Source: Escherichia coli | GTDB lineage: Bacteria; Pseudomonadota; Gammaproteobacteria; Enterobacterales; Enterobacteriaceae | Direction: 5' to 3' (one strand) | NCBI RefSeq assembly: GCF_013122565.1 | Contig: NZ_CP053258.1 | Length of the DNA: 64,000 bases | In this document: positions 9,815 to 10,331 of the stretch, in pieces | How the letters are laid out: every line of letters begins with the position of its first letter | Numbering within the stretch: the first letter of the stretch is position 1 | Notes under the pieces: generated by a model | What the model was told of the DNA's origin: nothing | The model's database searches: none | Seen by the model: only the letters and a program-made list of their open reading frames with translations | Position numbers and translations under genes: made by a program

Positions 9815-10096
9815 CTACCAATGACGGCGAGGTTCCATCAGCTGATGAAGAATGCGCGCAATGAGAATGTCATCGACTCTTATAACGTAATAAACAGTGT
9901 GAAACCTAAATGCGATCTTCTTTACCTCTGGAATCGCATCATAGTCTTGCCCTATCTCGGGCATTTGAGAGAGTGTATCCAGAAAAATGCCGAGAGAGTC
10001 GGTATAGCGATCCGCCTGCTCCTCACCAAACTTTCCCAGCGTGTAGTCATAGATCCCTCTGAAATCTTCAACAGCTTTTCCGCTAAGCTTATACAC
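9815..10096 (-). CDS. ParE/RelE-superfamily toxin (type II TA)
   Basis: Track ORF is 9815-10129 (104 aa). A GTG at 10094-10096 preceded by AGGAAG gives about 93 aa (VYKLSGKAVEDFRGIYDYTLGKFGEEQADRY...), typical ParE length, and overlaps the antitoxin stop by 8 nt (GTGTATAA). Confidence 0.7.
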   Translation of the reverse strand: MYKLSGKAVEDFRGIYDYTLGKFGEEQADRYTDSLGIFLDTLSQMPEIGQDYDAIPEVKKIAFRFHTVYYVIRVDDILIARILHQLMEPRRHW

Positions 10097-10331
10097 GATG
10101 TTTTTGCTTCCTTTCTGCTGCGATATCACGAAGCGTCATCGAACTTTCACCGCTCTCAAGACCTTCAATAACAGCATTTCTGACAGCTTCATCCCTGGAT
10201 TCTTGTTGTTCCAATAGACGAAGCGCTGAACGCATTACTTCACTGGCCGAGCCATAACGACCAGACTGGACCATCCGGGTAATAAAACTATCTAATTGTT
10301 CGCCAACGCTTACTGAGGTAATTTTGCGCAT
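10089..10331 (-). CDS. ParD-family RHH antitoxin (type II TA)
   Basis: 80-aa ORF MRKITSVSVGEQLDSFITRMVQSGRYGSASEVMRSALRLLEQQESRDEA..., the hallmark ParD/CopG ribbon-helix-helix N-terminus; GGAGA RBS upstream; immediately 5' of the ParE-like gene. Confidence 0.7.
   Translation of the reverse strand: MRKITSVSVGEQLDSFITRMVQSGRYGSASEVMRSALRLLEQQESRDEAVRNAVIEGLESGESSMTLRDIAAERKQKHRV

Follow-up and report, generated by a model that had tools for sequence, protein, structure and literature searches.

The Escherichia coli chromosome analysed here carries two small overlapping genes between secF and yajD. Do they form an intact toxin-antitoxin system, what does the toxin act on, and how does the cassette sit in a junction that most E. 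coli genomes fill with something else? The original prediction was of a parDE-type cassette, with an antitoxin of the ribbon-helix-helix (RHH) type followed by a toxin of the ParE/RelE fold. From our analysis of the window (the whole 64-kb stretch of DNA) we consider it likely that the pair is an intact chromosomal ParD/ParE type II toxin-antitoxin operon with its own operator, that its ParE is a gyrase poison, and that it is an accessory element.

The cassette belongs to a well-known family, is an ordinary example of it and had already been annotated; it is not a discovery. RefSeq names the products 'type II toxin-antitoxin system ParD family antitoxin' (WP_001226938) and 'RelE/ParE family toxin' (WP_000277484/5), and in the Sakai genome the pair is ECs_0461 and ECs_0462, 'plasmid stabilization system protein'. 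In a 2025 pangenome paper the toxin allele of O157:H7, WP_000277484, appears under the name 'ParE4' as a marker of O157 (PMC12472240). A literature search with ECs0461, ECs0462, Z0509, Z0510 and the WP accessions found one marker table and no experimental study of the locus. A 2025 review lists E. coli ParDE only among plasmid loci (PMC11869752), and a study of toxicity, gyrase and operator in a chromosomal E. coli ParDE would fill a small gap.

Gene layout and family of the pair

Both genes are on the minus strand with the antitoxin gene first, and they occupy exactly positions 9815-10331. parD (10331..10089, identified from the ORF list and profile matches) runs from an ATG start to its stop and encodes an 80-residue RHH antitoxin that is a probable autorepressor; its ribosome-binding site, GGAG (10342..10339, minus strand), is read from the sequence 7 nt 5' of the ATG. 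For parE there is a choice of start. The longest ORF begins at a GTG at 10129 and would encode 104 residues, whereas the internal GTG at 10096 gives a protein of 93 residues and an 8-nt overlap with parD (10089..10096, GTGTATAA, read from the minus strand). We rejected the longer form on four grounds. The PGAP coding sequence in O157:H7 is 282 nt long and has the 93-residue start; the Pfam match to the 104-residue ORF starts only at residue 13; ParE relatives are all 94-100 residues long (ParD relatives have 80); and the junction ...CGTGTATAA is identical in four of the five relatives examined, the fifth having ATG in place of GTG (ATGTATAA). The internal GTG, the toxin of about 93 residues and the 8-nt overlap, all three part of the original prediction, are therefore retained, and parE is placed at 10096..9815 (minus strand; assigned to the ParE-type toxins by profile, PDB sequence and fold matches). 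In all related loci fetched, the called genes keep both the 8-nt overlap and the antitoxin-first order, as expected of a coupled bicistronic operon, and the overlap would imply that parE translation is coupled to that of parD.

The antitoxin is readily classified. It matches Pfam PF03693 (ParD_antitoxin) at 1.9e-22 and NCBIfam TIGR02606 with 95.7 bits (cut-off 46.2), and it matches solved ParD proteins at E-values from 2.9e-19 to 1.4e-08. The best solved relative is Vibrio cholerae ParD2 (7b22/7r5a; 2.9e-19, residues 1-69); Caulobacter crescentus ParD1 gives 1.9e-13 and Mycobacterium tuberculosis ParD1 3.3e-10. The protein is identical to O157:H7 WP_001226938, and all 37 columns that are invariant in the family alignment are kept. 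It is thus, as predicted, a ParD-family antitoxin with an N-terminal ribbon-helix-helix.

The toxin required more care. It matches Pfam PF05016 (ParE_toxin) at 7.9e-14, so that the profile check suggested with the original prediction returned the ParD_antitoxin and ParE_toxin models for the two genes; NCBIfam gave no meaningful model match for ParE. Both PF05016 and the RefSeq name 'RelE/ParE family toxin' span RelE and ParE, and the branch was checked separately. A PDB sequence search gave significant matches to four proteins only, all aligned over their full length: PrpT of Pseudoalteromonas rubra, M. tuberculosis ParE1, C. crescentus ParE1 and V. cholerae ParE2. An AlphaFold2 model of the protein (mean pLDDT 89.4) was compared with known structures using Foldseek and superposed on these same four with TM-scores of 0.85-0.89. 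The predicted ParE/RelE-fold toxin accordingly falls on the ParE branch of that fold. It is no more than 28-32% identical to characterised toxins, so its target is deduced from family membership. PADLOC defence models matched neither ParD nor ParE at E-values up to 0.01.

Two other accounts of the toxin have to be weighed. It could be a RelE-like ribosome-dependent mRNA endonuclease and not a gyrase poison: neither the Pfam model nor the RefSeq name distinguishes the two, and RelE/YoeB structures do turn up in the fold search at E-values of about 1e-2 to 1e-3. They rank low, however. The top 23 Foldseek chains are all ParE-type or PfiAT toxin-antitoxin-complex chains, with RelE/YoeB appearing from rank 24, and TM-scores are 0.76-0.89 for ParE-type proteins against 0.5-0.67 for RelE/YoeB/YafQ (at most 0.67 for RelE/YoeB). 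Moreover, no RelE appeared in the PDB sequence search at E-values up to 1, the partner antitoxin is of the ParD family and not RelB, and a C-terminal RILHQxM is held in common with the ParE1 proteins. The pair thus does not belong with the RelB/RelE mRNA interferases, and an endonuclease is a very improbable reading. The second account takes the locus as an attenuated or decaying remnant in which ParE is mostly non-toxic, kept neutrally or for the use of its ParD in anti-addiction or regulation. Truncated ParE variants (P0008, P0023, P0030 and P0033) do exist in database contigs, and plasmid p1 of Pseudomonas sp. T1-3-2 (L083:7660-8166) combines the exact operator and an intact ParD (84% identity) with a ParE that is split into three tblastn fragments, so the family can decay on chromosomes. 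ParD is also better conserved than ParE among relatives (70-88% against 55-65% identity), the -35 element of the E. coli version is weak, and the references of a toxin-antitoxin review (PMC7167474) include a precedent in the chromosomal decay of ccdO157 in E. coli. Against this, both genes in the window are full length and keep every family-invariant residue, including the 24 invariant ParE columns with the C-terminal R-I-L-H-Q-x-M...H, which has its counterpart in the RVLHQxM of solved ParE1 proteins. The window ParE differs from that of O157 at just two amino acids and matches a 181-member database cluster (P0001) at 100% identity, and in each of the four carrier genomes for which annotation was consulted PGAP calls both genes intact. 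The original prediction had named frameshift or decay as a finding that would tell against it; neither is seen. To judge from their sequences parD and parE are full-length, undecayed members of the ParD/ParE family, and we regard a remnant as unlikely.

How does this ParD/ParE pair compare with systems already known? The closest are enterobacterial pairs of an 80-residue ParD and a 94-residue ParE, annotated as ParD and RelE/ParE, which have the same gene sizes, 8-nt overlap and operator block. Those compared are from Salmonella small plasmids, Citrobacter, E. coli plasmids, Xenorhabdus, Photorhabdus, Erwinia and Yersinia ruckeri. PrpA-PrpT is a plasmid-borne system whose antitoxin also has a link to the control of plasmid replication. 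PrpT (7YCS) is the best match of the window ParE in sequence (7.8e-08) as well as in fold (TM 0.89); it is 29% identical, and the window cassette, unlike PrpA-PrpT, is chromosomal with no replicon nearby. Another kind of ParE system is native to E. coli O157:H7 prophages, where the ParE of PaaR2-PaaA2-ParE2 has the same fold at 19-20% identity. That system has three components, with an antitoxin that is not known to have a DNA-binding domain and a separate regulator. The structures concerned (5CW7/5CZF) give TM-scores of 0.76-0.80, but the window system differs in having only two genes between secF and yajD and an antitoxin with its own RHH domain, and so is not of the three-component type.

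Of the characterised systems, V. cholerae ParD2-ParE2 (7R5A/7B22; PMC10776004) resembles the window pair in its RHH domain, its Lys-x-Thr-Ser ribbon, its ParE fold (TM 0.85), its two-gene operon and its GTA-containing operator boxes, and autoregulation has been shown there. Its operator, however, consists of three GGTA boxes bound in a 6:2 complex, whereas the window has one 19-bp palindrome with inverted GTAT cores; its ParE2 is only 28% identical; and it lies in the superintegron of chromosome II, the window cassette being between core genes. The ParD1-ParE1 systems of C. crescentus (3KXE) and M. tuberculosis (8C24; PMC10899793) match both window partners over the full length, with 3.2e-07 and 1.1e-07, respectively, for ParE, and give TM-scores of 0.86-0.87, the RxLHQxM motif in common and no extra C-terminal helix. 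They come from other hosts, and their ParE1 proteins are 31-32% identical to that of the window; gyrase poisoning has been shown for them and is expected here by homology.

The palindrome upstream of parD

The original prediction pointed to an inverted repeat, TATTAA-N3-TTAATA (10346-10360), in the upstream promoter region as a possible operator. The repeat is there and looks like an operator, but it is the core of a longer, perfect 8-3-8 palindrome, TGTATTAA-CTA-TTAATACA (10344..10362; found by repeat search and conservation), so the arms are of 8 bp and not 6. It also does not lie farther upstream: it is directly 3' of the -10 element and beside the ribosome-binding site. A consensus scan for promoters and terminators over 9700-10520 returned nothing at its thresholds and no sigma-70 site, and the -10 and the terminator were then assigned by comparison with relatives and by folding. 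The putative -10 is TATACT (10369..10364, minus strand; 5 of 6 positions), the apparent counterpart of TATCAT in relatives, and 18 nt separate it from a weak -35, TTGGTT (10393..10388, minus strand).

Taken by itself the palindrome is no more than suggestive. In dinucleotide shuffles of the 150-nt upstream region a 6-3-6 repeat arises by chance in 5.5%, and an arm of at least 8 with a spacer of 0-8 in 2.5%. Within the 64-kb window the palindrome is unique even when up to 3 mismatches are allowed. What gives it significance is its conservation in relatives. Upstream regions were compared from loci with 55-65% ParE identity, namely a Salmonella small plasmid, Erwinia tracheiphila, Y. ruckeri, Xenorhabdus, another Enterobacteriaceae genome and an E. 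coli plasmid. A block TGT(A/G)(T/C)(T/G)(A/G)A-NNN-TTAA(T/C)ACA lies 10-14 nt 5' of the parD ATG in all fetched loci, and the other upstream DNA cannot be aligned. It is the sole conserved upstream block across Salmonella, Xenorhabdus, Photorhabdus, Erwinia, Y. ruckeri, and E. coli and Pseudomonas plasmids. In the relatives with a clear promoter it comes directly after TTGACA-17-TATCAT, and the Xenorhabdus locus keeps both arms with the central triplet inverted. An exact-pattern scan of 100,044 species genomes was also made with the operator sequence: among the matches listed, most are chance occurrences in AT-rich genomes, and only the hits in Photorhabdus, Erwinia sp. S63, the Pseudomonas plasmid and one further locus (L101) adjoin a parD homologue, on its 5' side. 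Because a conserved block stands amid unalignable upstream DNA, we take the 19-bp palindrome, which lies between the -10 and the ribosome-binding site, as the probable operator of ParD and as a candidate site for autorepression here and in the relatives.

In V. cholerae, ParD2 makes contact with GTA[C/T] boxes by way of ribbon residues that are conserved, namely Lys, Thr and Ser (PMC10776004). The window ParD keeps K3-x-T5-S6, and the palindrome arms contain GTAT. Among the relatives a ParD ribbon reading MRKITSVS goes with the arms TGTATTAA/TTAATACA, and one reading MARTTSVT with TGTGTTGA/TTAACACA. This covariation involves two clades only and is confounded by phylogeny, and we take it as a lead, not as proof. 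The conserved putative operator and the matching ribbon variants offer a ready hypothesis about RHH-DNA specificity.

Could the palindrome be something other than a ParD operator, such as a 5'-UTR RNA hairpin that serves translation or stability of parD, a promoter element, or simply a relic of common descent? Its position 3' of the -10 makes transcription of the palindrome probable, it adjoins the ribosome-binding site, and the confounding by phylogeny just noted leaves room for descent. As RNA, though, it folds weakly (-5.5 kcal/mol, z = -1.7), which disfavours a hairpin and favours a DNA operator, and several relatives, whose symmetry is imperfect, keep the block while breaking the base-pairing. 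The block is likewise retained where the surrounding upstream DNA has diverged past alignment, and autoregulation at sites of this kind is a trait of the family's RHH antitoxins, demonstrated in V. cholerae ParD2 (PMC10776004). We hold these other roles to be unlikely, and keep to the reading as ParD operator.

The secF-yajD junction in E. coli genomes

The cassette is flanked upstream by secF (10482..11453, minus strand; end taken from the 972-nt PGAP coding sequence, the longest ORF extending to 11498) and downstream by yajD, which encodes an HNH nuclease (9380..9727, minus strand). The junction was believed from the outset to be uninterrupted in K-12, and so it is: the secF-yajD spacer of MG1655 has 128 nt and no cassette. 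Prefix/suffix comparison and local alignment show that the cassette-specific segment is 688 nt long (9794..10481) and stands where the K-12-type spacer has 62 nt. On the right the segment runs up to the secF stop codon, and on the left it ends 21 nt beyond the parE stop. We found no target-site duplications or flanking direct repeats at the edges and no sequence common to the 688-nt and 62-nt segments. The cassette is a replacement allele of the 62 nt and not a clean insertion. With no signature of it at the edges, a transposition-type insertion is unsupported.

The segment includes a terminator for secF (10405..10458, minus strand), made up of an A7-stem-U8 hairpin (10458..10423) followed by a GC hairpin (10423..10405). 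The inverted repeats are evident, and the RNA fold is strong (-33.8 kcal/mol, z = -5.3); at the corresponding position the terminator hairpin of the K-12 allele is an unrelated one. From the end of parE to the start of yajD there is no terminator-like fold (9728-9830, z = +0.78), so read-through into yajD is possible, and yajD may be co-transcribed with parDE in cassette-bearing strains. A bolder proposal would be that yajD expression is tied to the toxin:antitoxin ratio in the 8% of genomes that are carriers, and, as a separate idea, that the ribbon and operator variants form insulated specificity classes; we think this improbable. Such classes would let chromosomal and plasmid copies coexist without cross-talk.

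On the other side of yajD, the spacer to tsx (9343-9379) is only 37 nt in the window, with a single hairpin (9351-9373) that is likely a bidirectional terminator. In K-12-like and O157:H7 genomes this spacer has 176 nt and two extra REP/BIME-like repeats. The short form is found also in strain MEC2025-PR.

The comparison of the junction across E. coli genomes that had been proposed was made with 5426 complete genomes. The cassette is present in 424 (7.8%), at the same junction and with identical flanks, and the K-12-type spacer in 4898. Carriers include O157:H7, O55:H7 and CE10, and MG1655 is not among them. The locus is therefore a lineage marker of O157:H7, O55:H7, CE10 and some other strains, not of K-12. 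In about 100 of the 5426, both parDE and the K-12-type allele are lacking. One of these was examined, FDAARGOS_1281 (L013:4236-4694), and it has a third allele, in which IS200C is set into the K-12-type spacer at or near the terminator hairpin. As for the window itself, its first 24 kb match no complete E. coli genome above 98.2%, so its lineage is not among the complete RefSeq assemblies.

Relatives also occur on plasmids. Those on E. coli plasmids have only about 69% DNA identity to the cassette. PLSDB has 113 plasmids that encode relatives, with a best ParE identity of 63%, and among the matches listed each also spans an annotated ParD gene. Phage genomes contain no ParE relative at 1e-10, and a close counterpart of the chromosomal E. 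coli variant is absent from the plasmid and phage records. According to a review of toxin-antitoxin systems, the intergenic sites at which they insert are plastic and the mechanism of their movement is unknown (PMC7167474), and the secF-yajD junction fits this description.

Proposed action and other features of the window

We propose the following working model. Transcription would start at the weak promoter, whose TATACT is one base 5' of the 19-bp palindrome. A ParD RHH dimer may bind the palindrome through its N-terminal beta-ribbon, MRKITSVS, and so repress the operon, while the C-terminal half of ParD would wrap around ParE and neutralise it. Translation of the toxin would be held to that of the antitoxin by the 8-nt overlap. 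Gyrase poisoning has been demonstrated for M. tuberculosis ParE toxins (PMC10899793); freed ParE would by analogy trap gyrase cleavage complexes, which should stop replication and damage DNA. From homology to the M. tuberculosis, C. crescentus and V. cholerae ParE proteins we infer that the outcome is growth arrest by gyrase poisoning, neutralised by the cognate ParD. The module would have arrived as the 688-nt block with its own secF terminator, and its persistence in the chromosome is most likely that of a selfish and addictive accessory element, passed on within some lineages. The case also illustrates that a small toxin-antitoxin module, its correct GTG start and its putative operator can be recognised from raw sequence.

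Some other features of the window are of note. Scans of the whole 64 kb with Rfam and for tRNAs gave no family at gathering score and no tRNA gene. Between acpH and malZ there is an intact ORF of 451 residues, rich in Lys and Glu (16733-18088, minus strand), with no NCBIfam match; in O157:H7 the corresponding gene is labelled 'hypothetical protein, frameshifted'. This ORF holds a perfect 22-bp palindrome, TTTTCATTTCCGGAAATGAAAA (17943-17964). Finally, an ORF of 521 residues between yajO and pgpA (1624-3189, plus strand) corresponds to espY3, encoding a pentapeptide-repeat protein like type III secretion effectors, and has the same position in O157:H7.
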